Shown piece by piece: positions 3,309 through 53,984 of a stretch of 64,000 nt of DNA; within the stretch, counting starts at the first letter, position 1, and each line of letters opens with the position of its first letter. The notes under the pieces are model-generated. The model saw only the letters and a list, made by a program, of their open reading frames with translations, was not told where the DNA came from and did not search any database. Position numbers and translations under genes: made by a program. Origin of the DNA: Thermoanaerobaculia bacterium (GTDB lineage: Bacteria; Acidobacteriota; Thermoanaerobaculia; Gp7-AA8); assembly GCA_036522835.1 (NCBI GenBank), contig DATDFB010000057.1, positions 3,906-67,905 of the forward strand, read 5' to 3'.

Positions 3309-4806
3309 CCGTCACCTTCGTCACGCCGAACGGCAGCAGCATCGCGAAGTTCGGCGCGACGGCGTAGAACGGGCGGAGGTCGATCGGATTGCCGAGGAGC
3401 GCCGTGCCCGCTTTCGCACAGAGATCGCCCGTGCGGAGCATGTTCTCGATCGGGCGCTTCACGCGCATGGTCGGATAGAGCGCGTTCACCTCGTCGCGCA
3501 GGTTGCCTTGCGGCTTCTCTTTGTACTCCTTCGTGAACGACGTGACGGCGAGCTGATTGCCTTTCAGCTCCGCCTGCCAGGCCACGTGCGGCGCGCCCTC
3601 GGACGGGAAGCCGTCGTACCCGCCGTGGAAGAGAACCCCCGCCGGCGTCACCTCGGCGGCCATGTCGATGAGGTGTCCGCACGCGGCGGCGTTGACGTAT
3701 GACACATCCTGCCTGGCGATGCGATTCTGCGCGTCGTAGGTGTAGCGCGACGTGACGGCCTGCCCGTCGAGCACGAGCTCCTCGCGGTCGAGCAGCCACG
3801 CCTCGCCCGCTTTGTGCGCTCGGAAGTCGAGGAGGCCGGCGCGCTCGAGGTAGTCGGCGCCCTGCACGAGGCCCGGCCCGCTCAGGATCTCGCCGTCGTA
3901 CGTCCACCCCTCGCGCTTGCGCGCGTCCTGGATCTGCTTCTGCTTCACCGGCGTGTAGCGAAGGTCGTCGAACGGCACGCACGACAGCGTCTCGTTTCTG
4001 GCGACGCGGTCGTCGGCGTAGAACGACGTGCGCGTCGCGCCGTCGCTGCACGCGCGCGCATTCGCGTACGGCCCGTGCCAGCAGCGCGGGCACCACATCG
4101 CCCCCGTGGGGAGGCGGAGGCCGCAGAACGAGCAGACGATCTTCGTCTTCATGTCGTCGATCTCGCTCTCGAGCGCGAGGATGTGCGGCTCGATGTCCGC
4201 CTTTGACGCGGCGTCGAGGCCGGCGTAGCGGTGGAAGCGCTCCGCGGCCGTCGCCAAGTCGCCGCGCTTCTCGAAGATCACCGCCTCGTTGTAGACCGGC
4301 GCCGGGTCGTTCGGCCGCTTCTGCTCCGCGTCCTGAAAGAGCTTGAGCGCGGCGTCGTAGTCGCCCTTTTGGTAGAGGAAGCGGCCGCGCGTGAAGATCT
4401 CCGTGTACTCGTCCTCGGCCTGTTTCTTCTTCTGCAGCTCGCGCTGGAAGTCGAGCTCGAGCTGGAGCTTGGCGAGGTTCTCCTTTTCCGGTCCGGCCGG
4501 GTAGAGCTGGTTGTAGCGGTCGACTTTCTGCTGGGCCTCGGAGACGCGCCCGGCCTTGGCGAGCGTGAGGGCCATGTCGTACAGCACGCCGGCGACGTCG
4601 GGCTGCAACTGATCGGCCTTCGCGAACTGCGCGTAGGCCGCGGTGTAGTCCTTCATCGAATAGAACTTCTGGCCGAAGAAGACGGCCTTGGTGAACTCGT
4701 CCTCCGGCTGCTGCGCAAGACCGAATGCAGAATGCAGGATGCAGAATGCAGAAACGAGCAGCACCGCTCGCCATTCTGCATTTTGCATTCTGCATTCTGC
4801 ATTCAT
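3289..4806 (-). CDS. Exported TPR-repeat protein with internal zinc-ribbon (CSFCG...CPRC) and unknown C-terminal domain
   Basis: This is the C-terminal 505 codons of track ORF 3289..6636. The ATG at complement 4804-4806 overlaps the upstream gene's stop (ATGA). N-terminus MNAECRMQNAEWRAVLLVSAFCILHSAFGLAQQ is signal-peptide-like, followed by TPR-like helices (YTAAYAQFAKADQLQP..., YDAALKLFQDAEQKRPND...). No family recognised for the last ~280 aa. Confidence 0.7.
   Translation of the reverse strand: MNAECRMQNAEWRAVLLVSAFCILHSAFGLAQQPEDEFTKAVFFGQKFYSMKDYTAAYAQFAKADQLQPDVAGVLYDMALTLAKAGRVSEAQQKVDRYNQLYPAGPEKENLAKLQLELDFQRELQKKKQAEDEYTEIFTRGRFLYQKGDYDAALKLFQDAEQKRPNDPAPVYNEAVIFEKRGDLATAAERFHRYAGLDAASKADIEPHILALESEIDDMKTKIVCSFCGLRLPTGAMWCPRCWHGPYANARACSDGATRTSFYADDRVARNETLSCVPFDDLRYTPVKQKQIQDARKREGWTYDGEILSGPGLVQGADYLERAGLLDFRAHKAGEAWLLDREELVLDGQAVTSRYTYDAQNRIARQDVSYVNAAACGHLIDMAAEVTPAGVLFHGGYDGFPSEGAPHVAWQAELKGNQLAVTSFTKEYKEKPQGNLRDEVNALYPTMRVKRPIENMLRTGDLCAKAGTALLGNPIDLRPFYAVAPNFAMLLPFGVTKVTVTTPAK
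4722..4805. repeat. Hairpin repeat, GCAGAATGC family (diverged copy), inside the 5' end of a CDS
   Basis: gaatgcagaatgcaggatgcagaatgcagaa ... ccattctgcattttgcattctgcattctgcattc forms ~30-bp imperfect inverted arms. Related to 16330-16428 and 19813-19925. Confidence 0.75.
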
Positions 4807-5915
4807 TGCAGCAGCGCCTCCACCACCCCGCCCACCCAATCGTCGATCACCGGCGACGTTGCCAGATACGAGTAGAGTGCGTGGCGCTTCTGCTCCGACG
4901 GCGCGCTCGGGTTGCGCAGCACGCCCGCAGGATCGGGCATCAGGTCGACCACGACGTCGCGCGCGTCGCGCGGCGCCCAGTGCGAGGGCATGTCGCTGCC
5001 GAAGAGCTTCGACACGAGCGCAAGGCGGTCGCTTTCGCCGTGCGCGGCGCGCGCGGCGGCGGCGAGGCGGCCCTTCGAGCTCTCGATGAGCATGCGAAGA
5101 TTGGATAGCACCTGCAGCCGGCGCGTGCAGGCCTCGAGGATCTTGACGTCGGAGAGGGCCGTGCTGGCGGCGAGGATCTTCTGGATGCGGTCGGTCTCGA
5201 CGGAGATGAACGCGTCGGCCGGATCGTCGGCAGGGGGCGCCGGCTCGTCGACCTTCACCTCCGGCGTGGCCGGCGTGGCCACCGGCGCGGGCGGCATGGC
5301 CGGCGTCGGCACGATCTCGGCGAGCGGCAGATCGGAGATGGCCGGCGCATCGCCGATCTCGCTCTTCGGCATGCGCAGATCGGCCGGCTCGTTGGCGATC
5401 GCCGCCGGCGGCGGAGCGGGCGGCAGCGGCACGAGCTTCGCCGCACCGAACGGCGAGCCCGCCGGCGCGGCGGGGTCGCGCATCAAATCCGAATCCGTCG
5501 GCACTTCGGCGTCCATCAGCCGCTCGCGCACGCGCAGCCGCGTGTCGCCTGCCTGGCGCAGTTGAGCGTTGCGGGCCACGTCGTTGAGGTACGTCGCGCT
5601 CATGTCGCAGTGGCAGGGGCCGAAGTTGTCGGGCAGGTAGCGCTTGTCGTTGCGCTGGCGGTAGAAGTCGACGACCGCGGCGTTGTGGCGCATGGCCGCG
5701 TCGCGGGCGCGCTCGCAGGCGGCCTGCGAGGCGAACTGGTTGATGCCCGAAAACTCGTTGAAGCCGCGTAGTTCCGGGTTGTACATCTGCACGTGGTAGT
5801 GGAAGACGTCGCAGTGCGCCGGGGGCGTCGCAGAAGGCGGGCAGAGCAGCGCCTGCCCGAGGGCCGAGCCCGCCGTCACCGCCGCCACGAGAAAAACGCT
5901 TACGCGAAGCCGCAT
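4803..5915 (-). CDS. Exported hypothetical protein (Cys-containing N-domain, Pro-rich linker, helical C-domain)
   Basis: Track ORF 4803..5969. The best start is MRLRVSVFLVAAVTAGSALGQ (ATG at complement 5913-5915), because upstream codons are translation of a palindromic repeat. PPAPPPAA/PAMPPAPVATPATP linker. No family recognised. Confidence 0.65.
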   Translation of the reverse strand: MRLRVSVFLVAAVTAGSALGQALLCPPSATPPAHCDVFHYHVQMYNPELRGFNEFSGINQFASQAACERARDAAMRHNAAVVDFYRQRNDKRYLPDNFGPCHCDMSATYLNDVARNAQLRQAGDTRLRVRERLMDAEVPTDSDLMRDPAAPAGSPFGAAKLVPLPPAPPPAAIANEPADLRMPKSEIGDAPAISDLPLAEIVPTPAMPPAPVATPATPEVKVDEPAPPADDPADAFISVETDRIQKILAASTALSDVKILEACTRRLQVLSNLRMLIESSKGRLAAAARAAHGESDRLALVSKLFGSDMPSHWAPRDARDVVVDLMPDPAGVLRNPSAPSEQKRHALYSYLATSPVIDDWVGGVVEALLQ

Positions 5916-5975
5916 GTGGAGCGCGCCGGCCATGCCGGCGCCGTAAGAGCGGCGGCATGGCCGCCGCACTCCACA
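5916..5975. repeat. REP-like double palindrome, family TGGAGTGCGGCGGCCATGCCGCCGC
   Basis: gtggagcgcgccggccatgccggcgc-cgtaaga-gcggcggcatggccgccgcactccaca. Same architecture as 48434-48491 and 51917-51975. Confidence 0.85.
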
Positions 5976-6039
5976 GAATATACGACTTCAACACCGCGGC
6001 CCCTCTCGTCGTACCGCTGGCGACGAAAGGAGAACCTCC

Positions 6040-11933: not shown

Positions 11934-11958
11934 TGGAGTGCGGCGGCCGCACTCCACA
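11934..11958. repeat. Minimal copy of the TGGAGTGCGGCGGCC...CACTCCA palindrome
   Basis: tggagtgcggcggccgcactccaca is a perfect hairpin. It lies between the convergent stops at 11929 and 11979 and is a possible bidirectional terminator. Confidence 0.75.
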
Positions 11959-16309: not shown

Positions 16310-16329
16310 GGCGCGTTACGCCCGCATAC

Positions 16330-16428
16330 CACGGAAACTTAGAACGCAGAATGCGAATGCAGAATGAAGAAAGCTTCGCCGGCGATTTCTCAATTCTGCA
16401 TTCGCATTCTGCGTTCTGAATTTCCGTG
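16330..16428. repeat. ~100-bp hairpin repeat, AGAACGCAGAATGCGAATGCAGAATG family
   Basis: cacggaaacttagaacgcagaatgcgaatgcagaatgaagaaa ... tttctcaattctgcattcgcattctgcgttctgaatttccgtg. The arms are nearly identical to the copy at 19813-19925. Confidence 0.9.
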
Positions 16429-16446
16429 GGCCGAAAGCAGGCGAGC

Positions 16447-17776: not shown

Positions 17777-18396
17777 ATCGTTCGCAGCAGCGCCCGCACC
17801 GGACTGGCATCCCCACCCCGAATCCGCAGCGGCGCCGCGATCAGCTCGTACGCCCCCTCGGCCACGCCGTCGAGCACGAGCCCCTCGAGGTTGGCCATGT
17901 CGTGCTCCGCGAGCGCCTGGTGCGACTCCAGCGCCTTCGACTCGAACGGATCGACCGACGGCGTGTCGATGCCGACGAGGATCACGCCATGCTGGTGCAG
18001 CACGTCGATCACCGCGGGCGAGAGGCTGGCGAAATCGTCGTTCCAGTTGCGCGGATCGGGAAACGTGCCGGTGCGAAACAGCACGCGCGGCGCGGTGATG
18101 GCCTTGCCGGCGATGTGCATCGGGCGGATGCGGTCGCCGCGCTCGACGTTGACGTGCACGACGATGCACTGGCCGATGTAGTAATCGAGCGAGCGCGAGG
18201 CGATGTCGGCGCCGCCGGCGGCGTAATGGCTCGGCGCGTCGGCGTGCGCGCCGGCGTGGAGCGTGGTGCGGACGTCGGAGAGCGTCAGGTGCGCGCCGGC
18301 GTCGATGTCGAGGCTGACGTTGCGCGCGAACGGCGTGTCCCCGGGCCAGACTGCGACGCCCGCGTCGAGCACGGGCGAGATGTCGATGAGCGTCAT
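17773..18396 (-). CDS. kynB: Cyclase-family metallohydrolase, kynurenine (aryl)formamidase-like
   Basis: 207 aa. LHAGAHADAPSHY (HxGxHxDxPxH metal motif), VGIDTPSVDP, ESHQALAEH. Overall length and order match KynB-type arylformamidases. Confidence 0.8.
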   Translation of the reverse strand: MTLIDISPVLDAGVAVWPGDTPFARNVSLDIDAGAHLTLSDVRTTLHAGAHADAPSHYAAGGADIASRSLDYYIGQCIVVHVNVERGDRIRPMHIAGKAITAPRVLFRTGTFPDPRNWNDDFASLSPAVIDVLHQHGVILVGIDTPSVDPFESKALESHQALAEHDMANLEGLVLDGVAEGAYELIAAPLRIRGGDASPVRALLRTI

Positions 18397-18400
18397 ATGA

Positions 18401-18479
18401 GTGTCATTCCGAGCCGCGAAGACGGCGAAGAATCCCGTGCCTGCCGGCAGGGGGTCCCTCGCTCCGCTCGGGATGACAC
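18401..18479. repeat. REP-like palindrome, family GTGTCATYCCGAGC
   Basis: gtgtcattccgagccgcgaagacggcgaagaatccc...cctgccggcagg...gctcgggatgacac. It fills the gap between the kynB-like start and the upstream gene's stop. Confidence 0.85.
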
Positions 18480-30456: not shown

Positions 30457-32157
30457 ATGCGCTGGAGCCAGTCCTTCATTCACACCCTGCGCGAAGTTCC
30501 GGCCGACGCGGACGTCGTCAGCCAGAGACTGATGATGCGCGCCGGCATGATCCGCAAAGTAGCCGCCGGAATTTACACCTATCTCCCCCTCGGCCTCCGT
30601 TCGATGCAGAAGCTCGAGGCCATCATCCGCGAGGAGATGAACCGCGCCGGCGCGGTGGAGCTCCTCGGGCCGACCATCCACCCGGGCGAGTTGTGGATGG
30701 AGTCGGGACGCTGGCAGCGCTACGGCAAGGAGCTCCTGCGCATCAAAGACCGCCACGAGCGCGACTTCGTCTACGGCCCCACGGCCGAGGAGGTCGTGAC
30801 CGACGCCGTGCGGAACACGCTCAACTCCTATCGACAGCTCCCGATCAACCTCTATCAGATCCAGACCAAGTTTCGCGACGAAGTGCGGCCCCGCTTCGGC
30901 CTCATGCGCGGGCGCGAGTTCACCATGAAGGACGCGTACTCCTTCCACGCCACGGCATCGTCGCTCGACGAGACGTACGAGAAGATGCGCGACGCCTACA
31001 GCGCCATCTTCCGCCGCTGCGCGCTCGACCACGTGCCGGTCGAGGCCGACACCGGCAACATCGGCGGCAGCGCCTCGCACGAGTTCATGGTGCTGGCGCA
31101 GTCGGGCGAGGACGCGGTCGTGTCGTGCCCCAACTGCCGCTACGGCGCGAACGTGGAGAAGGCCACGTCGAAGTTCTTCCTCGACGAGCCGGAGCCCGCG
31201 CCGATGGAAGCGATGGCCGAATTGCACACGCCGGGAACGCAGACGATCGACGACGTCGGCCGCTTCCTCGGCAAGCCGACCTCGCAGCTCGTCAAGACCC
31301 TCGTCTTCGACACCGACAAAGGGTGTCTGATGGTCCTCGTGCGCGGCGACCGCGAGGGGAACGAGGTCAAGATCAAGAACGTCTCCGGCGCCGAGTGGAT
31401 GGAGATGATGCCCGACGCGCGCTTCGAGGAGGCCACGGGCGGCCCGGTCGGCTATTGCGGTCCGGTCGGGACGAAGGCGGCACGCGTGATCGCCGACGTA
31501 TCGCTCAAAGGCCACGTCAACTGGATCGTCGGTGGCAATAAGAAGGACTACCACCTCGGCGGCGCGAATCCCGGCCGCGACTTCCCCGAGCCGGAGTACG
31601 CCGACGTCACGACCGTCTTCGCCGGCGATCCCTGTCCGCGCTGCGGCACGCCGCTGGAGATCAACCGCGGCATCGAGGTCGGCCATGTGTTCAAGCTCGG
31701 AACGAAGTACTCCGAGCCGATGGGCTGCACGTTCCTCGATGAGAACGGCGAGCGCAAGCCGATGATCATGGGCTGCTACGGCTTGGGCGTCGGCCGCACG
31801 GTCGCCGCCGCGGTGGAGCAGAGCCACGACGACGACGGCATCATCTGGCCGATCCCGATCGCGCCGTACACCGTCGTCGTGACCGCGCTCGGCAAAGAGG
31901 AGAGCGTGCGCGCGACGGCCGAGGAGGTCTACGCGAAGCTCCTGGCCGCCGGCGTCGACGTGCTCTTCGACGACCGCGACGAGCGCCCCGGCGTGAAGTT
32001 CAAGGACGCGGATCTGATCGGTTTTCCGCTGCGCATCGCCGTCGGCGCGAAGAGCCTGGCGAACGGCGTCATCGAGTGGAGCTGGCGCAAGGATCGCGCG
32101 AAGCAGCTCGGGCCGCCGGGCGAGGTGGTGGAGACGGTCATAACGGCCGCTCGGTAG
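30457..32157 (+). CDS. proS: Proline--tRNA ligase (bacterial type with editing domain)
   Basis: 566 aa. MRWSQSFIHTLREVPADADVVSQRLMMRAGMIRKVAAGIYTYLPLG, class II motifs FRDEVRPRFGLMRGREFTMKDAYSF and GCYGLGVGR, anticodon-binding C-terminus. The stop TAG lies inside a palindromic repeat. Confidence 0.97.
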   Translation: MRWSQSFIHTLREVPADADVVSQRLMMRAGMIRKVAAGIYTYLPLGLRSMQKLEAIIREEMNRAGAVELLGPTIHPGELWMESGRWQRYGKELLRIKDRHERDFVYGPTAEEVVTDAVRNTLNSYRQLPINLYQIQTKFRDEVRPRFGLMRGREFTMKDAYSFHATASSLDETYEKMRDAYSAIFRRCALDHVPVEADTGNIGGSASHEFMVLAQSGEDAVVSCPNCRYGANVEKATSKFFLDEPEPAPMEAMAELHTPGTQTIDDVGRFLGKPTSQLVKTLVFDTDKGCLMVLVRGDREGNEVKIKNVSGAEWMEMMPDARFEEATGGPVGYCGPVGTKAARVIADVSLKGHVNWIVGGNKKDYHLGGANPGRDFPEPEYADVTTVFAGDPCPRCGTPLEINRGIEVGHVFKLGTKYSEPMGCTFLDENGERKPMIMGCYGLGVGRTVAAAVEQSHDDDGIIWPIPIAPYTVVVTALGKEESVRATAEEVYAKLLAAGVDVLFDDRDERPGVKFKDADLIGFPLRIAVGAKSLANGVIEWSWRKDRAKQLGPPGEVVETVITAAR

Positions 32158-32209
32158 GGGCGCACGGCGTGCGCCCTCAGCGTCCGGGCGCACGCCGTGC
32201 GCCCCTACC
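32153..32209. repeat. REP-like palindrome, family GGTAGGGGCGCACGGCGTGCGCCC
   Basis: Perfect 24-bp inverted arms ggtaggggcgcacggcgtgcgccc / gggcgcacgccgtgcgcccctacc separated by 9 nt. It contains the proS stop codon. Confidence 0.9.
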
Positions 32210-37332: not shown

Positions 37333-39167
37333 TCCGCCGCACGCTGCTGCTCTTCGCCGCCAATCTCGTGCTCTTCACGCTGCTGCGGGTGGCGTTTCTC
37401 CTGGTCTTCGGCCATCGCCTGGCCGGGAACGATCTTCTGCGCGCCTTTTACCTCGGATTGAAATTCGACGCGCGGCTGGCGGCGCTGGTCGTCGCGCCGA
37501 TCGCGATTTTCGGCACGCGCCGCGCGGCGACGATCGTCTTCGCAATCTTCGAGCTCATCGTCCTCCTCTGCTACGCCATCGACTTCGGCTCGTACGCGTA
37601 CGTCCACCAGCGCGTGAACGCCAGCGAGCTGGAGTTCCTCCGCAATCCGCTGATCTCGCTGCACATGGTGTGGGAGTCGTACCACGTCGTCTGGTTCGGG
37701 CTGGGCATCCTGCTGTTCCTCGCGGCGCTCGTGTTCGCGCTGCGCGGCGGCGACGTGTCATCCCGAGCGCAGCGAGGGATCCCCCGCGACCCGCTCTGGC
37801 AGCGCATCGCCCTCATCGTCTTTCTTCTGGCGTGCATCTACGGCAAGGCCTCGCGCTACCCGCTGCGCTGGAGCGACGCCTACGTCGCACGCGATCCCTT
37901 CGCCGCGGAGCTCGCGCTCAACCCGCCGCAGTTCCTCTTCGAGACGATGCGCGAGGAGCCGGTGAAGCTCGACGAGAACCGCGTGCGGCGGCTCTACCCG
38001 GTCATGGCCGCGTATGCCGGAGTCGATCGCCCCGATCCGAAATCGCTGTCGCTGGCGCGCACGCCGAGGCTCTTTCCGCAGACCACCGGGGCGCCCAACG
38101 TCGTCGTCATCCAGCTCGAGTCCTTCGCGGCGTTCAAGAGCGGCGCGTTCGGCAACCGCGCCAACGGCTGCCCGAACGTCGACCGCCTGGCGCGCGAGGG
38201 GCTGCTCTTCACGAACTACTACTCCCCCTCGGAGAAGACCGCGCGCGCGCTCTATGCCGCCGTCTTCGGCATGGCCGACGTGAGCCCGTGGCAGGCCGCC
38301 GGCAACAACCCCATGGCGGTCGACCAGTACACGATCATCAACGCCTTCCGCGGCTACGAGAAGTATTTCTTCCTCGGCGGGAGCGCGAACTGGTCGAACA
38401 TCCGCGGGATGCTCGCGCACAATATCGACGGACTGAAGATCTTCGAGGAAGGCTCGTACAAAGCGAAGCCGGTCGACGTCTGGGGCGTGACGGACGAAGA
38501 GGTGTTCCTCACGGCGAGCGACGAGCTCTCGAAACAGCGCAAGCCATTCTTCGCGCTGATCCTGACCTCCGGCAATCACCGCCCCTACACCGTGCCGAAG
38601 GAGACGCACGGCTACGCGCGCGAGATCCTGTCGAACGAAGACCTGCGCGCGAACGGCTTCGAGTCGAACGACGAGTACAACTCCTTCCGCTACCTCGACC
38701 ACGCCGTCGGCCTCTTTTTCGAGAAGGCCGAGAAGGAGCCGTGGTTCAAGAACACCGTCTTTGTTCTCTACGGCGACCACGGCACGCGCACCGGCGCGCC
38801 CGGCGAAGCGCTCACGCTCGGCGACCTCTCGCTCATCGTCTACCACGTGCCGATGATCATCTACGCGCCCGGCTTCAACGTGCCGCCGCGCAGGATCGAC
38901 ATCGCCGCGAGCCACATGGACCTGATGCCGACGATCGCGAGCTTTTGCGGAGTGCCGTACCGCAATCAGACGCTGGGCATCGATCTCTTCGATCCGAATT
39001 CCGCCGGACACTCGGCAGCGTTCGTTTTTACAACGTTTCGCCAGCCGCCCACCCTCGGCCTGGTCGAAGGCGCGCGCTACACGATCGTAAAATCGGGGAC
39101 GAGCAACACCCTTCCGGAAGCGTTTTATGAGTTTTCTCGTTGGCTGATGCTGCACAATAAACCGTAA
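37329..39167 (+). CDS. LTA-synthase / phosphoglycerol-transferase family membrane sulfatase-fold protein
   Basis: In-frame part of track ORF 36048..39167 from MIRRTLLLFAANLVLFTLL (ATGA overlap with the LLM gene). About 5 N-terminal TM segments, then a sulfatase domain: VVVIQLESFAAF, LILTSGNHRPYTVP, VLYGDHGTR. Confidence 0.85.
   Translation: MIRRTLLLFAANLVLFTLLRVAFLLVFGHRLAGNDLLRAFYLGLKFDARLAALVVAPIAIFGTRRAATIVFAIFELIVLLCYAIDFGSYAYVHQRVNASELEFLRNPLISLHMVWESYHVVWFGLGILLFLAALVFALRGGDVSSRAQRGIPRDPLWQRIALIVFLLACIYGKASRYPLRWSDAYVARDPFAAELALNPPQFLFETMREEPVKLDENRVRRLYPVMAAYAGVDRPDPKSLSLARTPRLFPQTTGAPNVVVIQLESFAAFKSGAFGNRANGCPNVDRLAREGLLFTNYYSPSEKTARALYAAVFGMADVSPWQAAGNNPMAVDQYTIINAFRGYEKYFFLGGSANWSNIRGMLAHNIDGLKIFEEGSYKAKPVDVWGVTDEEVFLTASDELSKQRKPFFALILTSGNHRPYTVPKETHGYAREILSNEDLRANGFESNDEYNSFRYLDHAVGLFFEKAEKEPWFKNTVFVLYGDHGTRTGAPGEALTLGDLSLIVYHVPMIIYAPGFNVPPRRIDIAASHMDLMPTIASFCGVPYRNQTLGIDLFDPNSAGHSAAFVFTTFRQPPTLGLVEGARYTIVKSGTSNTLPEAFYEFSRWLMLHNKP
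37755..37785. repeat. Half copy of the GTGTCATCCCGAGC palindrome, in frame in a CDS
   Basis: gtgtcatcccgagcgcagcgagggatcccc translates as VSSRAQRGIP in a loop between TM segments of the LTA-synthase-like protein. Confidence 0.75.
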
Positions 39168-39176
39168 TCGCAAACG

Positions 39177-39206
39177 ACAGCGGCGGCATGGCCGCCGCAC
39201 TCCACA
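39177..39206. repeat. Half copy of the GCGGCGGCATGGCCGCCGCACTCCACA palindrome abutting the hflX ATG
   Basis: acagcggcggcatggccgccgcactccaca is followed immediately by the ATG at 39207. Confidence 0.85.
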
Positions 39207-40460
39207 ATGCCTGAAACTGCCATCGCCGTAGGACTTCTCCTGCCGGACACATCGCGTACCGTCGCCGACGAGCACCTCGACGAGCTCGAGAAACTGATCG
39301 AGACGGCCGGCGGCAACGTCGTCGCCAAAATGCTGGCCCGCCGCCCCGCGCCCGATCCCGCCACCTTCGTCGGCAAGGGGAAGGCGGAAGAGATCAAGGT
39401 CATCGCCGAGAATCACGGCGCGCAGCTCGTGGTCTTCGACGACGACTTGAGCCCCGCGCAGGTGCGCAACCTCGAGAAGATCACGGGCGTCAAGGTCATC
39501 GACCGCAGCGGCCTCATTCTCGACATCTTCGCCGGCCGCGCGCGCAGCCGCGAGGCGCGCACGCAGGTGGAGCTGGCGCAGCTCGAGTACACGCTGCCGC
39601 GCCTCACCCGCGCCTGGACGCACCTGGAGCGGCAGGCCGGCGGCATCGGCACGCGCGGCGTCGGCGAGACGCAGATCGAGCTCGACCGCCGCATCATCCG
39701 CAACCGCATCGCCCACCTCAAAGAAGAGCTGCGCAAGATCGAGCGGACGCGCGTCACGCAGCGCAAGGCGCGCAGCAGCGCCTTCACCGTCGCGCTGGTC
39801 GGCTACACGAATGCCGGGAAGTCGACGCTCTTCAACCAGCTCACGCGCGGCGGCGCCGAGGCGGTCGACAAGCTGTTCGCCACGCTCGATGCGAAGTCGC
39901 AGCGCGCCGCGTTCGAGATGCCGCGCGAGACCGTCGTCATCGACACCGTCGGCTTCATCCGCAAGCTGCCGCACAACCTCGTGGCCTCGTTCCGCTCGAC
40001 GATGGAGGAGGCGGTCGCCGCCGACCTCGTGCTGCACGTCATCGATGTGAGCCATCCACAGTACGAAGAGCAGCGCACCGTCGCCGAGGAAGTGTTGAAA
40101 GAGCTCGGCGTGCCGGCGGAGCGGGTCATGGAGGTCTACAACAAAGTCGACCGCGCCGAGACCATGATCCGCCGCAAGGGCGCCGTCGGCGTGTCCGCGC
40201 TGACGGGGCGGAACATCGACAAGCTGGTCGATGCCATCCGGCAGCGCGAGCTCGAAGGCGGCGAGGTCGTGCAGCTCGAGATCCCGCACTCCGAGCCGAA
40301 GCTCCTGGCGGAGCTGCACGAGACCGCGGTGGTGTACGCGCAGACGGCATCCGACGACATCACGGCCGTCACGGCGTGGCTGCCGTTCGAGGTCCTGCCG
40401 CGATTCACCGAGTACCGGCGGCCCGACGTGGCCGCCGCCGCGCGCGCGACGCTCAGGTGA
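39207..40460 (+). CDS. hflX: GTPase HflX
   Basis: 417 aa. N-terminal HflX domain (FVGKGKAEEIK), GYTNAGKSTLFNQLT (G1), DTVGFIRKLPH (G3), NKVD (G4). Confidence 0.93.
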   Translation: MPETAIAVGLLLPDTSRTVADEHLDELEKLIETAGGNVVAKMLARRPAPDPATFVGKGKAEEIKVIAENHGAQLVVFDDDLSPAQVRNLEKITGVKVIDRSGLILDIFAGRARSREARTQVELAQLEYTLPRLTRAWTHLERQAGGIGTRGVGETQIELDRRIIRNRIAHLKEELRKIERTRVTQRKARSSAFTVALVGYTNAGKSTLFNQLTRGGAEAVDKLFATLDAKSQRAAFEMPRETVVIDTVGFIRKLPHNLVASFRSTMEEAVAADLVLHVIDVSHPQYEEQRTVAEEVLKELGVPAERVMEVYNKVDRAETMIRRKGAVGVSALTGRNIDKLVDAIRQRELEGGEVVQLEIPHSEPKLLAELHETAVVYAQTASDDITAVTAWLPFEVLPRFTEYRRPDVAAAARATLR

Positions 40461-44355: not shown

Positions 44356-45356
44356 GCGAGACAATCCGCATCGGCACGCGCGGCAGCCAACTCGCGCTCT
44401 GGCAAGCCAACGAAGTGTCGAACCGGCTCAGCGAAATCGGCTACCGGCCGGAGATCGCGGTCATCAAGACGACGGGCGACAAGCGCACCGACGTGCCGCT
44501 GTCGTCGGTCGGCGGCAAGGGCCTCTTCATCAAGGAGCTCGAGGAGGCGCTGGCGCGGCGCGAGATCGATGTGGCCGTGCACTCGCTCAAGGACGTGCCG
44601 TCGCTCGTCCCCGAGCCGTTCGTGCTGGCCGGCTTCCTCGAGCGCGCCGACGCCCGCGACGCCTGGGTGCAGCTCGACGGCACGCGCATCGAGGAGCTGG
44701 CTGCAGGCGCGGTCGTCGGCACGAGCGCGCCGCGGCGGCGCGCGCAACTGCGGCTGCTCTTTCCGTCGCTCACGCTCGAGGAGATGCGCGGCAACGTCGA
44801 CACGCGCATCAATAAACTGCGCGCCGGCTTGTACGACGGCGCGGTGCTGGCGTCGGCCGGACTCATTCGACTCGGCCGTTCCAGCGAGATCACCGCGCAG
44901 TTCGACGTCGACCAGATGGTGCCGGCCGCGGGGCAGGGCATCGTCACGATCGAGTGCAACAAAGACGACGATCGCGCGCGCCAGGCCGCCGCGGCGATCA
45001 ACCACCATCCCAGCGAGGCCGCGGCGCGCGCCGAGCGCGGCGTGCTGCAGAAGTTCGGCGAGGCGCTCGACTGCTACTCCGCCGTGGCCGTGCATGCGAC
45101 GTGGGCCCGTGTCATTCCGCGTCGCGAAGACGGCGAGGAGTCCCGTGCACACGACGACGGCGATGCTCCGTCGGCAGGAGATCCTTCGCCGTCTTCGCGG
45201 CTCGGGATGACACGTCTCAAGATCCGCGCGTTCTTCGGCGAGCTCGAAGGCGAGCGCCATTTGCACGTCACGCGCGAAGGCGACGAGGCCGACGCCGTCG
45301 TGCAGCAAGTCTTCGACGAGCTCGTCGACCGCGGAGCCATGGAGCTGCTCAAGTGA
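44352..45356 (+). CDS. hemC: Hydroxymethylbilane synthase (porphobilinogen deaminase) with in-frame repeat-derived insertion
   Basis: Last 335 codons of track ORF 42240..45356. ATGA overlap with hemA. IRIGTRGSQLALWQA, HSLKDVP, RGNVDTRINKL, and the cofactor Cys in EALDCYSAV. Contains a 35-codon insert, (R)VIPRREDGEESRAHDDGDAPSAGDPSPSSRLGMTR. Confidence 0.93.
   Translation: MSETIRIGTRGSQLALWQANEVSNRLSEIGYRPEIAVIKTTGDKRTDVPLSSVGGKGLFIKELEEALARREIDVAVHSLKDVPSLVPEPFVLAGFLERADARDAWVQLDGTRIEELAAGAVVGTSAPRRRAQLRLLFPSLTLEEMRGNVDTRINKLRAGLYDGAVLASAGLIRLGRSSEITAQFDVDQMVPAAGQGIVTIECNKDDDRARQAAAAINHHPSEAAARAERGVLQKFGEALDCYSAVAVHATWARVIPRREDGEESRAHDDGDAPSAGDPSPSSRLGMTRLKIRAFFGELEGERHLHVTREGDEADAVVQQVFDELVDRGAMELLK
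45109..45213. repeat. REP-like palindrome (GTGTCATTCC...GGGATGACAC), 105 bp, in frame inside hemC
   Basis: gtgtcattccgcgtcgcgaagacggcgaggagtccc ... ggagatccttcgccgtcttcgcggctcgggatgacac. About 36-bp arms, about 33-nt loop. Length 105 = 35 codons. Confidence 0.88.
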
Positions 45357-47062: not shown

Positions 47063-50000
47063 ATGCCATACGAATGCCAGTCAGGCTTGGACGCCGCCGC
47101 CCTCAGCTACACTCCGCGCGTGCCGCGCGTCCTCAAAGCCTCGCTCTGGCTGGCCGCCTTCTTTTTCGCCTGCGGTATTTTCCTCGGCACGACGCAACTG
47201 CTTCGGGCCGTGCCGCCGACGCCGCACGTGGCCGTGGGGCGGGTGACGGTCGAGAACGCGTCGAAGCTGCGCGAGTACCTCACGGCGCTCCTCTTTTTCG
47301 TCCTCGTCCCGCCGCTGACGATCGGCCTCTATCGGCTCGGCTCCCGGCAGCTCGAGCGGTTTCCCGGCACCCTTCCCTCGGCACTCTTCGTCGCGCCATT
47401 TTTCCTCGCGCCGTTCCTTTATCTGACGACGTTCAAGTGGGGCTGGCCGCTCATCATCCCGCTCGCGGCGTCGCAGCTCGGCCCGCGCGCGCTGCTGCTC
47501 TTCCGGCGCACGCGCTGGCTGCGACAGCTCCTGGCGATGAAAGCGTTCAACGCCCTCATCGCCGCCGAGGCGCTGGCGTGGATCCTCTTCTTCTACATCG
47601 GCACGTGGCACCGCATCGCCCACATCGCCACGCTCTTTCTCGAGATCGTCTTCGTCGGCTTCTTCATCGCCCTCTTCTGGTGCGCCTTCGCCCTGATCGC
47701 GCGGATCGCCTCGTTCACCGGCGGCATCGACATCGAGGTCGCGTTCCAGAGAGTCGCCGCCGGCGCGCTGCCGCTGATCATCCTGCCGGCGCTCGGCCTT
47801 CGCTTCGTCCCGGCGCACATCGCCATCTCCACGGTCATGGCCGTGACGTTCGCGACGATCGCGATGGTTCTGCAAGGCAAGGAGCCGGTCGATGCGAGGC
47901 GCGTCCGCAACGTCACCGCGTACGTCATCTTCCCGCTCCTCCTCTATTGCGTCAGCTACGCCTCGACCGCGGCGCTCTCGCAGTGGATCGACCTCTTCCA
48001 CCGCGGCGAGTCGCTCGGCCCAGCCTTCGACTACCTCCGCGGCAAAGTCCCGTACCGCGACGTCTTCGTCCTGCACGGCCTGCTCGAGGACGGCCAGCTC
48101 GACGCCTGGCTCTTCCAGCTCTTCGGCCGCAATGCCGGCATCGCCCTGGCGCGGCCCGTGATCCTAGGCTCGTTCGCCGTGCCGGCGCTCTGGTACGTCG
48201 GCATGGCCATCTTCGACTCGATCCCGCTCGCGGCGCTGGTGATGCTCCTCGGGGCCGTGACAACGGTCGACAACGAGCGCGAGTTGTGGGAGATCCTCGT
48301 CCTGGCGCTGCTCCTCGGCGCGCTGCGGCGGAAATCGAAAATGCTCTATGTCCTCAGCGGCGTCGCCGCCGGCGTCACGCTCTTCTTCAGCTTCGACATC
48401 GGCCTCTACTCGATCGCCGGCGGCTTGATCGTTTGTGGAGTGCGGTGGCCACGCCACCGCTCTGACAGCGGCGGCATGGCCGCCGCACTCCAGATCTTCG
48501 GCATCGCGATCGGCACCGCACCGTTCATCGCATATCTGGCGAGCAAAGGTGCCGTTAAAGCCTTCTTCGAAACCTCCTTCGTCACGATCCCGCGAATCAT
48601 CGACGCCGTCTGGTCGCTCCCCTTTCCCGACCTCACCTCCACGTTCCGCAGCAAGAATCTCAACCTCCACACACTCTCCGACTTTTTCCTCTACGAGCAC
48701 TTCCGCTACATCCTCAATCCGCTCGTCATCTGCCTGGCCATTCTGGTGCTGCTGTGGCGGCGCAAGCGGTGGGAGTGGATCGACACCGCCCTCTTCGCGC
48801 TCACGATCTTCGCCGTCCTCACCCAGCGCAGCGCGTTGGGCCGCGCCGACTTCCCGCATCAATACTTCTCCGCGTTTCTCATCGGCCCGATGATCCTCAT
48901 CCTCCTCGTGCTTCTCGCGCGGGCGGGGCAGTGGTCGGTGGCGCTGCTCGTGCCGCTGCTCGCCGTCGTGCTGTGGGTGCCGGACATCGCCAACGGCCGC
49001 ATCGACGACACCTGCCACTACCAGGGCCGCGTCAGCGGCACCATTCGCGACCCGAAGGCGGAGGAGGTGCGCAACCGCATCGACGCCGTGCGCTACTGGG
49101 TCTGGCAGCACAGCAAGCCGAATCAGCCGATCTTCGACTTCTCGAACCAGCCGGCGCTCTACTTCTTCTGCGAGCGGCCGAATCCGACGCGCTTCTACCA
49201 GGTGCCGATCCTCTCGCCGCCGGCGCTGCAGCGCGAGACGATTCTGGCGCTCGAGCGCGCGAAGCCGCCCGTCGTCATCCGGCGCTCGCCGCAGGAGTTC
49301 GACGTCTTCGACGGCATCGACAACGCCATCCGCGCGCAGGCCGTGGCCGCGTATCTCGACGACTTCTACGTCTTCGCCCACACCACGCGCGGCGTCGAGG
49401 TGTGGGTGCGCAAGGCGCCGGCGCCGCAGCTCAATCTCGCCGGTTACATGCGCCGCTACCGCATCCCCACGCTCGAGGAGCTCGGCACGATCGGCGGGCG
49501 CTCGCGCGTCGTCTTCCCGACCGTCGGCACCGTGCCGGGCGTCGGCGGTGCGTACTGGCGCTCCGATTTGATGCTGCACAACCCGTGGAAGGAGACGATC
49601 TCGCTCGACCTCCGTTACGTCGCCGGCGACGTCCGCGCGCACCGCAACGTCATCCTAGGCGCCGGGCAGAGCATCGTCTGGCCCGACGTCGTACGCACGT
49701 TCTTCGGCGCGCCGGAGAGCCGCGGGGTGCTGTGGATCGAGTACCGCGGCACGAACGCGCCCGTCGCGCGGGTGAAGACGTCCGATGTCGCGCACGAGGC
49801 GAAGGCGACGATCGACGCGCCGCTGACGCTCGCCGGCTCCGCGACGGCCGGGACGCCGAGCGACGACCTGACGATTTTCGGCCTCCCCTCGACGAAGGAC
49901 CGGCGGATCAACATCGGCATCGTGAACGTCGGCGCGATTCCGGCCACGTTCCGCATCACGGCGCGCTCGCGCACCGGGCAGCCGATCGGCAGGCCGATCG

Positions 50001-50188: not shown

Positions 50189-50736
50189 TCGAGCTCGCGT
50201 TGCCCTGGGGCGATCGCGCCATCGCCATCCGCGACGTCGACGATCCGGAATCGTGGCTGCGCGGAGACGAGCTCGCGGTCGCGCGCGCCTTCCCGCGCGA
50301 GAAGCGCAGACAGGAGTGGATGCTCGCCCGCGCCGCTGCGAAAGTGCTCGCGCGCCGCCGCGGCCTCGGCGACATCGCCGTCGAGCGCCCGCTCGTGTCG
50401 GTCTCGCACTCAGGCCCGTGGGCCGCGGCGGCGATCGACACGATGCCGGTCGGCATCGACATCGAAGTCGTGCGCGACGTCAGCGAGCGCGCCGCGCGGC
50501 ACTTCCTTACCGAGGAGCAGATCGCGCAGATGGAGTCATGCACGATTCCGCATCGCCTGCTGCACTTCTGGTGCGCAAAGGAGGCGGCATGGAAGCGGCT
50601 GTGCGGCTCGATTCCGTTTCTGAAAGGCGTCCCGCTGACGCTTCTGGAGTGCGGCGGCCATGCCGCCGCTTTCGATTCCGTGGAGACGATCGAGCTCGGC
50701 GGCGTCGTCGTCGCCCTCACGCGCCCCACTTCTTGA
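50185..50736 (+). CDS. 4'-phosphopantetheinyl transferase superfamily protein (Sfp/EntD-like)
   Basis: In-frame part of track ORF 50110..50736 from MIELALPWGD (ATGA overlap with the upstream gene). SVSHSGPWAAAA, PVGIDIEVV, FWCAKEAAWK (W/FxxKEAxxK). Confidence 0.8.
   Translation: MIELALPWGDRAIAIRDVDDPESWLRGDELAVARAFPREKRRQEWMLARAAAKVLARRRGLGDIAVERPLVSVSHSGPWAAAAIDTMPVGIDIEVVRDVSERAARHFLTEEQIAQMESCTIPHRLLHFWCAKEAAWKRLCGSIPFLKGVPLTLLECGGHAAAFDSVETIELGGVVVALTRPTS
50645..50670. repeat. Half copy of the TGGAGTGCGGCGGCCATGCCGCCGCT palindrome in frame in the PPTase gene
   Basis: tggagtgcggcggccatgccgccgct translates as LECGGHAAA near the PPTase C-terminus. Confidence 0.8.
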
Positions 50737-51612: not shown

Positions 51613-51915
51613 ATGCGCAGCATTGTTTGTCTCGCCGCCGTCCTCGCACTCGCGGCTTGCCGCGGCGAGAAGATTCCGCGCGACTACCAGAACAACCCGC
51701 CGGCGATGACGCACCCGGTGACGAAGTCGTCCGATACGCCGACCGCGCACGGCATGCCCGGCCCGGCGCCGGAGCCGAGCAAGGGCGCCGAGGGGAAGAA
51801 CGTGAGCCGGCAGCCGACGTCGCCGACCTCGACAACGTACACCCTCGGCGATCAGGCGCCGACGCAGACGACCAGCACCTCCGCGACGGGGACGCAGTTG
51901 AAGGTGAAGCCATAA
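51613..51915 (+). CDS. Small lipoprotein, Pro/Thr/Ser-rich, unknown function
   Basis: MRSIVCLAAVLALAAC lipobox at the start chosen within track ORF 51574..51915. Low-complexity remainder. Coding status is moderate. Confidence 0.5.
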   Translation: MRSIVCLAAVLALAACRGEKIPRDYQNNPPAMTHPVTKSSDTPTAHGMPGPAPEPSKGAEGKNVSRQPTSPTSTTYTLGDQAPTQTTSTSATGTQLKVKP

Positions 51916-51916
51916 T

Positions 51917-51975
51917 GCGGAGTGCGGCGGCCATGCCGCCGCTGTAACAGCGCCGGCATGGCCGGCGCACTCCAC
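51917..51975. repeat. REP-like double palindrome abutting the fmt ATG
   Basis: gcggagtgcggcggccatgccgccgc-tgtaaca-gcgccggcatggccggcgcactccac is followed directly by the ATG at 51976. Confidence 0.88.
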
Positions 51976-52836
51976 ATGCGCCTGCTTTTTTTCGGAACCC
52001 CGCAATTCGCCGTGCCGACACTCGAGGCCATCGCGCGCGAGCACGAGGTCGTGCTCGTCGTCGCGCAGCCCGACAAGCCCGCGGGCCGCGGCATGCATCT
52101 GCAGGCTCCCGCGGTGGTCGTGCGCGCGCGCGAGCTTGGGCTGCCGGTGGCGCAGCCGCCGAAGATCCGCGACTTCGCGCCGCCCGCGGCCGAGGCGGCG
52201 ATCGTCGTCGCGTACGGAAAGATCCTGCCGGCGGCGCTGCTCGCCACGATGCCGTTCTACAACGTGCACGCGTCGCTGCTGCCGAAGTACCGCGGCGCGG
52301 CGCCGATCCAGCGTTCCATCGAGCACGGCGAAGCGGAAACGGGCGTGACGATCATGCGCATCGACGAGCAGCTCGATCATGGGCCGACGCTGCTGGCTGC
52401 GTCGACGGCAATCGACCCCGATGAGCATTCGCCGGGGCTCGGCTCCCGGCTTTCGGCTCTCGGCGCGGATTTGATGCGGCGGGTGCTGCGCGAGCGGCCG
52501 GCCGAGGTCGAGCAGGACCACGCGCGGGCCACGCTCGCGCCGAAGATCGACAAGGAGGAGGGACTCGTCGACTGGAGCGCCCCGGCGCGGGCGATCTACG
52601 ACAAGTTCCGCGCCTTCGATCCATGGCCCGGGATTTTCACGGACACGATGAAGTTGATCGACGTCGCGCCGGCTTCCGGCCAGGGCGCGCCGGAAAGCAT
52701 CCTCGCCATCGACGACGGCGTCGTCGTCGCTTGCGGCGAGGGCGCGCTGCGCGTGCGCACGATCCAGCGCGCGGGAAAGCCGCGCGTGAACGCCGCCGAC
52801 GTGGCGCGCGCGGAACGCTGGCGCGTCTTCCCATGA
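51976..52836 (+). CDS. fmt: Methionyl-tRNA formyltransferase
   Basis: In-frame part of track ORF 51922..52836 from MRLLFFGTPQFAVPTL. AQPDKPAGRG and NVHASLLPKYRGAAPIQRSI. Confidence 0.93.
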   Translation: MRLLFFGTPQFAVPTLEAIAREHEVVLVVAQPDKPAGRGMHLQAPAVVVRARELGLPVAQPPKIRDFAPPAAEAAIVVAYGKILPAALLATMPFYNVHASLLPKYRGAAPIQRSIEHGEAETGVTIMRIDEQLDHGPTLLAASTAIDPDEHSPGLGSRLSALGADLMRRVLRERPAEVEQDHARATLAPKIDKEEGLVDWSAPARAIYDKFRAFDPWPGIFTDTMKLIDVAPASGQGAPESILAIDDGVVVACGEGALRVRTIQRAGKPRVNAADVARAERWRVFP

Positions 52837-53984
52837 ACGAGCGCCAGCGCGCGCTGCACCTCCTCCGCCGCATCGAGCGCGAGCAGGCGTTTGCCGCGCC
52901 GCTTCTGGCCCAGGAATCCGGCTTCGTCCGCACGCTCGTCCTCGGCGTGCTGCGCTGGCGCTCGCGTCTCGACTTCGCCGTGTCGGCACACGCGAAACGA
53001 AAAATCGACGATCAAGTCCTCGATGTCCTCCGCCTCGGCGCGTACCAACTGCTCTTCATGGACATCGCCAAGTACGCCGCCGTCGCGGAGACAGTGGAGC
53101 TCGCGCCAAAGCATGCGCGCGGCTTCGTCAACGCGATGCTGCGGCGCGTGACGGACGTCGAGCCCAAAGATCTCGCCACCCGCACCGCCCACCCCCCCTG
53201 GCTGATCGCGCGCTGGGTGCGCCACTACGGCGAGGAGCGCGCCGCGCGCATCGCCGCCGCGAATCAGGAGCTGTCGTATCCGGACGTGATCGCGAACGAG
53301 CCGCCGCCCGAGGCCACGCCGTCCGAGCTCGTCCCCGGCATGTGGAAGCTGCATGGATCCTCCGCCGACGTCGAAGGCATCGTTCTCGACGAAGGAAGCG
53401 CGGTCATCGGCGACCTCGCCGCGGCGACGTCAAACGACATTCTCGACCTCGCCGCCGCGCCGGGCGGGAAGAGCATCGTCGCGGCGCTGCGCGGGGCGCA
53501 TGTGGTGAGCAACGATGTCTCGATTGGACGGCTGCTCGGCGGGCGCATGCTATGCGCCCCTACCGGTAGGGGCGCACGGCGTGCGCCCCTCGTTGTCTCC
53601 GACGCGCGGCAACCGCCGTTCCGAAGAACGTTCGACACCGTCCTCCTCGATGCGCCGTGCAGTGCCACCGGCACGATCCGCAAGAATCCGGAGCTGAAGT
53701 GGCGTCTGCGCGAGGAGGACCTGCCGTCGTTCGCGAAACTGCAGCGCGAGATGCTGGAAAGCGCCGTGCGCCTCGCAAAACGCTACGTCGTCTACTCCAC
53801 CTGCTCTCTCGAGCCCGAAGAAAACGACGAAGTCGTGAACGGATTCGAACGGGAAGACGCGGCGGGCTTCGTCAACGATAACGTCCGCCGCTGGGTCGAA
53901 GACGGCGTGCTCCGCCTCACGCCCGAGTCGGGCGCGGACGGCTTCACCGCGTTTGTGCTAAGAATTCCGCCCCATGCCGCGTGA
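52833..53984 (+). CDS. rsmB: 16S rRNA (cytosine-C5)-methyltransferase RsmB/Sun family
   Basis: ATGA overlap with fmt. N-terminal NusB-like MNERQRALHLLRRIEREQAFA, ILDLAAAPGGKS, LLDAPCSATGTIRKNPE, YSTCSLEPEEN. Contains an in-frame palindromic repeat. Confidence 0.9.
   Translation: MNERQRALHLLRRIEREQAFAAPLLAQESGFVRTLVLGVLRWRSRLDFAVSAHAKRKIDDQVLDVLRLGAYQLLFMDIAKYAAVAETVELAPKHARGFVNAMLRRVTDVEPKDLATRTAHPPWLIARWVRHYGEERAARIAAANQELSYPDVIANEPPPEATPSELVPGMWKLHGSSADVEGIVLDEGSAVIGDLAAATSNDILDLAAAPGGKSIVAALRGAHVVSNDVSIGRLLGGRMLCAPTGRGARRAPLVVSDARQPPFRRTFDTVLLDAPCSATGTIRKNPELKWRLREEDLPSFAKLQREMLESAVRLAKRYVVYSTCSLEPEENDEVVNGFEREDAAGFVNDNVRRWVEDGVLRLTPESGADGFTAFVLRIPPHAA
53541..53589. repeat. REP-like palindrome (GGGCGCA...TACCGGTAGGGGCGCACGGCGTGCGCCC) in frame inside rsmB
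   Basis: gggcgcatgctatgcgcccctaccggtaggggcgcacggcgtgcgcccc translates as GRMLCAPTGRGARRAP within the methyltransferase domain. Confidence 0.85.

Follow-up and report, generated by a model that had tools for sequence, protein, structure and literature searches.

Palindrome ends at three start codons

The stretch of DNA analysed here (the window, 64,000 nt), which comes from contig DATDFB010000057.1 of a Thermoanaerobaculia bacterium, carries several copies of a short palindromic repeat that resembles the repetitive extragenic palindromes (REPs) of other bacteria and their doublets, the REPINs (REP doublets forming hairpins). Three genes in the window begin directly at the end of such a copy: fmt, which encodes methionyl-tRNA formyltransferase, hflX, which encodes a ribosome-associated GTPase, and, on the minus strand, a gene for an exported protein. 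The genes and features that make up the three junctions are the following.

51613..51915, plus strand, gene for a small lipoprotein (MRSIVCLAAVLALAAC...) upstream of fmt, with its TAA stop at 51913-51915
51915..51977, unstranded, full REPIN-like element at fmt (GCGGAGTGC-GGCGGCCATGCCGCC-GCTGTAACAGC-GCCGGCATGGCCGGC-GCACTCCAC), with 31-nt arms that are 90% complementary
51976..52836, plus strand, fmt, methionyl-tRNA formyltransferase, whose ATG shares its first two bases with the end of the inverted repeat
39165..39179, plus strand, TAA stop of the sulfatase gene and the 12 nt that follow it, TCGCAAACGACA
39180..39206, plus strand, single REP unit before the hflX ATG, made up of the hairpin GCGGCGGCATGGCCGCCGC and the tail ACTCCACA
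39207..40460, plus strand, hflX, ribosome-associated GTPase, with its start placed by homologue N-termini
4803..5915, minus strand, exported protein of 370 aa, function unassigned, with the signal peptide MRLRVSVFLVAAVTAGSALGQ
5915..5975, unstranded, full REPIN-like element at the exported-protein gene, between TATATT and the ATG of this minus-strand gene
5977..5982, minus strand, TATATT, a -10-like hexamer 2 nt upstream of the element at the exported-protein gene

At fmt the sequence reads ...GGCGCACTCCAC and then the ATG at 51976, at hflX ...GCCGCACTCCACA and then the ATG at 39207, and at the exported-protein gene, on the minus strand, ...GGCGCGCTCCAC and then the ATG at complement 5913-5915. 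All three start codons lie 0-1 nt past ...GC(A/G)CTCCAC(A), exactly as the initial annotation had described them, and the N-termini of homologues agree with this placement. Its observation that no purine-rich Shine-Dalgarno (SD) sequence stands directly before these genes is likewise confirmed by the sequence, as no purine-rich stretch was found within 8-20 nt upstream of any of the three ATGs. The inverted-repeat arms at fmt (51915-51945 and 51947-51977) take in the first two bases of its ATG, and those at the exported-protein gene (5915-5941 and 5949-5975) the first base. The stem before hflX, GCGGCGGC-ATG-GCCGCCGC (39180-39198), ends 8 nt upstream of the start codon, and the last stem at fmt and at the exported-protein gene is the variant GCGCCGGCATGGCCGGCGC. 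The fmt element occupies the entire gap between the lipoprotein stop and the fmt ATG; a -10-like hexamer, CATAAT (51911-51916), overlaps this stop, and relatives have TAGAAT at the same place.

Judged by the N-termini of homologues, all three predicted starts are correct. More than 25 Fmt homologues begin at the same residue with (V/L/M)R(L/V)(L/V)FFGTP, and their start codon is mostly GTG or TTG, whereas the element-bearing copy uses ATG. About 40 HflX homologues begin with M(P/S/I)E(T/N)xIA, and no in-frame hflX start exists further upstream. Relatives of the 370-aa exported protein, which itself has no Pfam match, share MR(V/L) and a signal peptide from the same position. The NCBI record of the 100% identical Fmt (P0001) starts at the ATG in the hairpin loop, 51958, six codons early (MAGALH-MRLLFF), and the MAGALH extension is common to no Fmt relative; this start is probably a mis-call caused by the repeat. 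Neither the protein from ATG 51976 nor that from an upstream GTG has an exact match for Fmt, the public record using a third start. Contigs nearly identical to the window are present in soil metagenomes of JGI and ENA.

Copies of the repeat in other genomes were collected by scanning species-representative genomes with the exact terminal 20-mer as query, and all cross-genome results below are those among the matches listed. A unit end was counted as abutting a gene if an ATG lay 1-3 nt after CTCCN and opened an open reading frame (ORF) of at least 131 codons with a coding-like GC content at third codon positions (GC3). This was found for 3 of the 8 unit ends in the window and for 7 of 86 when loci of other metagenome-assembled genomes (MAGs) were included, compared with 0.7% of random oriented positions in the same loci (300 kb), a null in which internal Met codons were also counted. 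The corresponding P values are 1.9e-5 for the window, 0.002 for the other genomes and 2.7e-6 overall; with a null limited to non-coding DNA, where the pass rate is estimated at about 1.4%, P is still about 1e-4. Among the roughly 24 ends that face a start within about 140 nt, eight stand 0-2 nt past CTCCAN and the rest 4-137 nt. The abutment is confirmed and statistically supported, and the enrichment of starts at 0-1 nt from the element end holds in the cross-genome sample. In another MAG the rimM gene (locus L040) reads TAA-T-CTGGAG...CTCCAG-ATG, and its Pfam RimM N-terminal domain begins at residue 5. At locus L063 the predicted ATGs of a divergent pair, a deacetylase-like and a lysyl-phosphatidylglycerol-synthase-like gene, touch both ends of one cluster. 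This cluster (2530-2645 of L063) consists of four hairpins of the same family that make up the whole spacer between the divergent genes, which therefore has no room for conventional promoters.

The repeat family and other palindromes in the window

The repeat unit comprises a head, (T/C)(G/T)(T/C)GGAGT, and a 19-nt GC hairpin, GCGGCGGCCATGCCGCCGC, and the usual full element is a pair of inverted units of about 59 nt. The window holds eight units at six loci, namely three full elements, two single units and one mini palindrome, and matches to the core hairpin number 14, compared with 0.46 expected. In the full elements (5915-5975, 48435-48495 and 51915-51977) the inverted units are separated by spacers of 1-7 nt. 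Three of the six loci lie directly before start codons, one between convergent genes and two inside genes; the copies away from the start codons are listed here.

11937..11958, unstranded, mini palindrome of two heads only (TGGAGTGCGGC/GGCCGCACTCCACA), between convergent genes, 5 nt past a TAA stop
48435..48495, plus strand, full element in frame in the gene for a 1033-aa membrane protein, encoding ...CGVRWPRHRSDSGGMAAALQ...
50644..50670, minus strand, single REP unit in frame in the ACPS (phosphopantetheinyl transferase) gene, encoding LLECGGHAAAF

The membrane-protein element adds about 16-20 residues (GVRWPRHRSDSGGMAAALQ) and is shared with a 90% relative (L079, about 17830-17900), in which it ends ...CTCCACATGG inside the gene, so a CACAT(G) terminus need not be a start. 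The element is absent from L080 and L081, while L090 and L092 have other inserts in the same loop. The ACPS copy swaps exactly 27 nt of a variable loop (ECGGHAAAF vs DERADALRF) and leaves the gene length unchanged. No Rfam 15 match at gathering score was obtained anywhere in the window.

Many further copies were found in the Thermoanaerobaculia MAGs DATEZA01, DATKFO01, DASVHS01 and DASYUK01 and in the Acidobacteria gp7 MAG QHVS01, together with chance matches in coding DNA of unrelated high-GC bacteria; beyond the eight units of the window, other MAG loci contain more than 70. Orthologous regions from 80 related metagenome contigs (808 kb) contain only two units, along with more empty sites and no intermediate states. 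With so few units in these orthologous regions, the expansion of the family is lineage-specific and recent. Partner hairpins that were gathered without a pairing filter differ from copy to copy yet pair perfectly (GGTCGCCATGCGACC, GGTGCCCATGGCACC and GGCAGCCATGCTGCC). In a set pre-filtered to at most one mismatch, 97% of the cells are paired, four pairs are changed on both sides, and none of 500 shuffles scores as high. The copies thus compared point to stems that are maintained by compensatory changes.

Other palindrome families behave in a similar way. A second family, GTGTCATCCYGAG...CTCGGRATGACAC (GTGTCAT...ATGACAC), has a copy at 2324-2403 (GTGTCATCCTGAG...CTCGGAATGACAC) at the junction of purE with a cation-efflux gene (CDF transporter), where the efflux ATG at 2397 lies inside the 3' arm and the purE TAG stop now stands 1 nt before the copy. 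At the same site L083 (13380-13480) has no element, a 20-nt overlap of the two genes and a GTG start. Another copy (18401-18479) begins 5 nt past a stop and ends 4 nt before the ATG at 18396 on the minus strand, and a half copy (37755-37767) lies in frame in the sulfatase gene (VSSRAQRGI), where L080 has a full copy and L079 and L081 lack one. At 32153-32209 a classical REPIN with a GTAG tag, GGTAGGGGCGCACGGCGTGCGCCC, supplies the TAG stop of proS (32155-32157), and a second GTAG REPIN (53541-53588) lies in frame in rsmB, giving about 16 residues more than in L077; L076 has a different insert there. Two sister families act alike, in that one supplies a start and the other a TAG stop. The general picture is that several palindrome families seem to persist nowhere but at gene boundaries and in permissive loops. 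A further copy of the GTGTCAT family lies near 45201-45213. The window also has long, AT-richer palindromes of GAATGCA-like heptads at the 3' side of genes (4723-4804 and 16329-16429).

Initiation in the lineage and junctions that lack the element

SD and -10 usage in the lineage was surveyed over the whole window, L001 and L079-L083. In a gene set based on GC3, 13 of 48 genes have GGAG, GAGG or AGGA at -17 to -4 of any early start candidate, and the figure for internal start-like codons is 13.7%. Database gene calls for the locus equivalent to the window and four relatives give an SD core at -17 to -4 in 18 of 86 genes, nine of them strong, over a background of 13%. TANNNT at -20 to -4 precedes 24 of these 86 genes compared with 0.9% in the background, a 30-fold excess suggesting that mRNAs without a leader, or with a very short one, are widespread in Thermoanaerobaculia. 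In a lineage so poor in SD sequences, it needs no special explanation that the three genes lack one. The initial annotation had set these genes against others with clear SDs; the SDs of hup, the gene at 6040 and hemA are indeed present, but genes of this kind are a minority.

The same junctions in relatives allow a direct comparison with the arrangement in the window. In the relatives L079, L080, L081 and L092, at 88-91% identity, the hflX start overlaps the sulfatase stop in CC(A/G)TGA, the junction reading ...AAACC ATGA GT... or ...AAGCC GTGA TC..., whereas the window and L078 (97% HflX identity) have TAA, 12 nt, the REP unit and then ATG. The 15 nt after CCG in the window (TAATCGCAAACGACA) are identical at 12 of 15 positions to hflX codons 1-5 of the ancestral form as represented by L080 (TGATCGAAAACGTCA). 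This stretch may therefore be a left-behind or duplicated copy of the old overlapping hflX start, in which one substitution, G to A, would have converted TGA to TAA and abolished the old GTG. Different inserts occupy this junction elsewhere: L082 (9920-10000) has a different, 78-nt palindromic insert, and L086, L090 and L091 have yet another insert family upstream of hflX. One of these unrelated inserts reads GCGAGCAGG...CCTGCTCGC, and another reads GCGCAGGGGGCAGGGCGCAG...CTGCGCCCTGCCCCCTGCGC followed by TATAAT. By these comparisons the sulfatase/hflX junction is a recurrent landing site, or hot spot.

At fmt, three relatives (L074, L081 and L092) have TAG-AATCGCGC(C)GCC-GTG, with the start 11-12 nt after TAGAAT, and L076 and L077 have a divergent neighbour and read ...TTACAAT, 8 nt, TTG. 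TAGAAT and TACAAT are good -10 hexamers at a distance of 8-9 nt from the start, so that fmt appears to be leaderless or almost leaderless. The window has CATAAT at the same place, and the element begins one base later. The exported-protein gene has TATAAT, 15 nt and ATG in L083, with no element, and TATATT, CT, the element and ATG in the window. Simple insertion was considered for these two sites and rejected, as the halves of the relatives' spacers were not found flanking the element. No SD was found at the element-free hflX, fmt or exported-gene junctions of the relatives; since the orthologous sites without the element also lack an SD and the lineage is low in SDs generally, the missing SD predates the element. 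The initial annotation had proposed that the element might bring its own initiation context. What stands of this is that the terminal A or AT forms part of the ATG, but the view that it replaced, or itself furnishes, a ribosome-binding context is not supported by the element-free orthologues, which equally lack an SD. A consensus scan gave no sigma-70-like promoter at either of the two full copies beside a start, and the flanking -10-like hexamers at fmt and at the exported-protein gene have no -35 partner at the proper distance. A leaderless mRNA from a promoter inside the element was considered and rejected, the 12 nt before the ATG (GCACTCCAC) having no -10-like hexamer.

Origin of the spacers and alternative explanations

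We propose that the element is a REP/REPIN-like repeat that has expanded in a compact, SD-poor lineage and survives as a gene spacer where stop and start remain intact, its end supplying one or two bases of the ATG; we give this explanation a probability of about 60%. By the comparisons above, the element shapes the start codon but is neither the source of an initiation signal nor specific to translation genes; it would be a gap-filler. In so compact a genome, the first genes of operons would typically have a -10 box 6-15 nt before the start, and internal genes would overlap or nearly touch the preceding stop. An insert of 30-60 nt would then be tolerable only in permissive protein loops or at gene boundaries of a few nucleotides at which both stop and start are intact. 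A random or weakly targeted flux of insertions, together with purifying selection against damaged stops and starts, could lead to exact abutment, and termini of the form ...CA/...CAT and TA|AT... would ease the rebuilding of ATG and TAA. The order expected to survive is stop or -10 box, element, start, with nothing between them, and a preference for AT-containing targets possibly adds to selection.

Such an insert must still permit initiation, and folding predictions suggest how this could be. For the fmt element, folding predicts a single hairpin (-62.5 kcal/mol) whose base includes the paired A and U of the start codon, and the element at the exported-protein gene, with its flanks, reaches a predicted -71 kcal/mol. 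An RNA begun about 7 nt after the -10-like hexamer would carry a 5'-terminal hairpin of -47 to -54 kcal/mol, with the AUG predicted to be unpaired 5 nt beyond. Should fmt and the exported-protein gene be transcribed in this way, the transcript would start with a 5'-terminal hairpin followed by the AUG, and the hairpin might act as an mRNA stabiliser. The predicted folds lend plausibility to the gating or stabilising of these mRNAs that the initial annotation had suggested as an alternative. In E. coli mRNA decay, a 5'-terminal hairpin is expected to stabilise the mRNA. If the gene is instead read from the transcript of its upstream neighbour (hflX and possibly fmt), a ribosome terminating ahead of the hairpin, by 1 nt at fmt and by 12 nt at hflX, would open the 5' arm and expose the AUG, which stands at the opposite foot of the stem, and the ancestral translational coupling would be kept. 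Liang, Rudd and Deutscher reportedly found in 2015 that translation of the upstream gene is lowered, through ribosome stalling, by E. coli REPs lying about 15 nt or less from a stop; their work is said to concern the upstream gene only and not a start that lies downstream, at the hairpin's other foot. As the fmt copy stands 1 nt and the copies of the second family 1-5 nt past the upstream stop, the same effect on the upstream gene would be expected here.

Several points weigh against this explanation. The spacers of the relatives, AATCGCGCCGCC at fmt and CGCGGCCGTTCTCGC at the exported-protein gene, are missing rather than split around the element. With the spacers gone, the arrangement is not what plain insertion followed by selection would predict, and a more specific target, gene conversion or replacement is hinted at. 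Conversion or replacement, and not insertion, is also what the ACPS copy looks like. A MITE would have terminal inverted repeats and a target-site duplication of fixed length; inverted repeats are present, but the sequences on either side of the window's three full copies share no direct repeat, and in gp7-type copies, where AT at both ends is palindromic, a duplication is not separable from the inverted repeat. REP-associated tyrosine transposases (RAYTs) were looked for by a simple motif search in the window and in L001-L082, translated in all six frames; none was found, but the search is too crude to establish absence. Furthermore, the cross-genome sample was seeded by an exact 20-mer, the starts in other MAGs are read from ORFs and Pfam matches, and the seventh abutment case, L021, is a weak one. 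Promoters, transcription start sites and coupling are all inferred.

A further version of the proposal is that the repeats are selfish elements adapted to gene boundaries, with termini that rebuild stop and start codons and a folded hairpin that keeps SD-free coupling or leaderless-like initiation going across a 60-nt insert; so specific an adaptation strikes us as unlikely. Targeted insertion, in which a mobilising enzyme (e.g., a transposase of HUH/RAYT type specific for single strands) has a preference either for short targets containing AT, such as (T)AAT and A^TG, or for DNA that is melted from a -10 box to a leaderless start, would also place copies at gene edges, since in a genome of 67% GC the AT-containing sites concentrate at TAA stops, ATG starts and -10 boxes. 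The left flanks are usually ...(T)AAT or ...AT, as in CATAAT|GCGGAG at fmt and TATATT-CT|GTGGAG at the exported-protein gene, and gp7-type flanks read cTAAT|CTGGAG, gTAAT|CTGGAG, tTAAT|CTGGAG and gAAT|CTGGAG. Both start-adjacent full copies begin 1-2 nt past a -10-like hexamer that pre-exists in relatives, and if the element is taken out of fmt or of L040 rimM together with one AT, TAATGCGC remains in both, a classical stop/start overlap. However, AT at both ends is also expected from an extended inverted repeat, the fmt relatives have TAG, 11-12 nt and GTG instead of TAATG, and the intragenic copies and the hflX copy have other flanks. With no transposase candidate from the motif search either, we doubt that targeting is the explanation.

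The hairpin could alternatively be a dedicated cis-regulatory RNA that gates or stabilises translation-related mRNAs (fmt, hflX and rimM), hiding the AUG until it is opened. Its predicted stems, which are very stable and whose basal pairs take up the A and U of the start codon, would suit this role. So would an alternative hairpin, GGCGCA-CTCCACA-TGCGCC followed by TGCTTTTTTT (51964-51992), which spans the fmt start, resembles an intrinsic terminator and is predicted when the 5' arm of the element is unavailable; this terminator-like hairpin may be accidental, its T-run encoding the conserved LFF. Of about seven cases, three concern genes for translation or ribosome biogenesis, but the same element precedes the unrelated exported-protein, lysyl-phosphatidylglycerol-synthase-like and deacetylase-like genes, and copies also lie between convergent genes and in frame inside at least four genes. 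Close relatives carry the same genes without the element, the two units in 808 kb of relatives mark it as recent and not as a conserved regulator, and an Rfam match is absent. We therefore consider a dedicated regulator very unlikely. The link to translation factors that the initial annotation had drawn from two of the three genes, to which rimM in one other genome can be added, is not upheld, as tightly packed operons explain it equally well.

Harder still to believe is a split ribosome-binding site, in which the GGAG of the 5' head would be brought beside the AUG by the folded inner hairpin, as in gene 38 of phage T4. Each full element does open with (G/C)(T/C)GGAGTGC and close with ...CTCCAC-AUG, the two ends lie side by side once the inner stem folds, and some genes in the lineage are led by an SD. 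Nevertheless, the GGAG itself pairs with the CUCC beside the AUG, the hflX copy is a single unit without an upstream GGAG, the same genes in relatives have no SD, and the GGAG would lie outside the RNA if transcription starts after the -10-like hexamer. That the ATGs are not real starts or that the three cases in the window are luck is already largely refuted and has next to no credibility: the NCBI Fmt start at the loop ATG shows that repeats do mislead gene callers, REPs that seem to lie in N-terminal coding regions are often mis-annotations (PMC3733652) and the sample is small, but homologue N-termini fix all three starts, the association remains at P = 2e-5 (window) and 3e-6 (overall, among the matches listed) against a generous null, and it recurs independently in other MAGs and in the second repeat family.

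Comparison with known systems and significance

In its general features the family is like REPs and REPINs. The palindrome is short, GC-rich and imperfect and has a conserved head that stays unpaired; copies are numerous and scattered, the two units of a doublet fold together as one long hairpin, stem changes are compensatory, and the expansion is lineage-specific. REPIN doublets are thought to be mobilised by RAYT transposases. Unlike the REP super-families with a GTAG or CGTC tag, the tag here is (C/G)(T/C)GGAGT, with the reverse complement ACTCCA(C/G), and whereas classical REPs lie mostly downstream of genes (PMC3733652), many copies here are upstream of genes or inside them. In GTAG REPs the terminus can supply the TAG stop of a flanking ORF (Di Nocera et al. 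2013, PMC3733652), of which the proS stop inside GGTAGGGG (32153-32157) is an example in the window. The present family likewise completes a gene-delimiting codon with its terminus, but the shared codon is the start (the A or AT of ATG), at the opposite end of the gene, and REPs at 5' ends are treated in that work mainly as annotation errors (PMC3733652). Neisseria REP2 and the Borrelia inverted repeats (IR) are also found directly upstream of genes, with the ATG of the repeat fused to an ORF (Delihas 2011, PMC3184786). Neisseria REP2 lacks terminal inverted repeats and comes with a promoter, a ribosome-binding site and a whole ATG. The present element is without a ribosome-binding site and contains at most one or two bases of the ATG, the -10-like hexamers lie in the flank and already exist in relatives, and the sequence is unrelated to Neisseria REP2 and Borrelia IR. 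The in-frame copies in permissive loops, here of the membrane protein, ACPS, the sulfatase and RsmB, recall the Rickettsia palindromic elements (RPE, PMC10969869), which differ in length (about 150 bp, compared with 27-60 nt here) and belong to different families and another phylum; the palindromes described here also fill intergenic junctions. In a limited search of the literature on REPs that lie at start codons, the GGAGT-headed family was not found described, and it appears to be undescribed.

For annotation these repeats present a practical problem, as they mislead gene callers and add in-frame peptides (such as ECGGHAAA and SGGMAAALQ) to soil-metagenome proteins. If the proposed explanation is true, the same genes with and without a hairpin of -60 kcal/mol at the AUG would constitute a natural test bed, in a phylum that has been little studied, for SD-independent initiation, including that on mRNAs with a short leader or none, and for translational coupling. 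It would also mean that mobile DNA can persist in densely packed genomes by carrying ends from which the interrupted stop and start codons are restored, while folding aside in the RNA.

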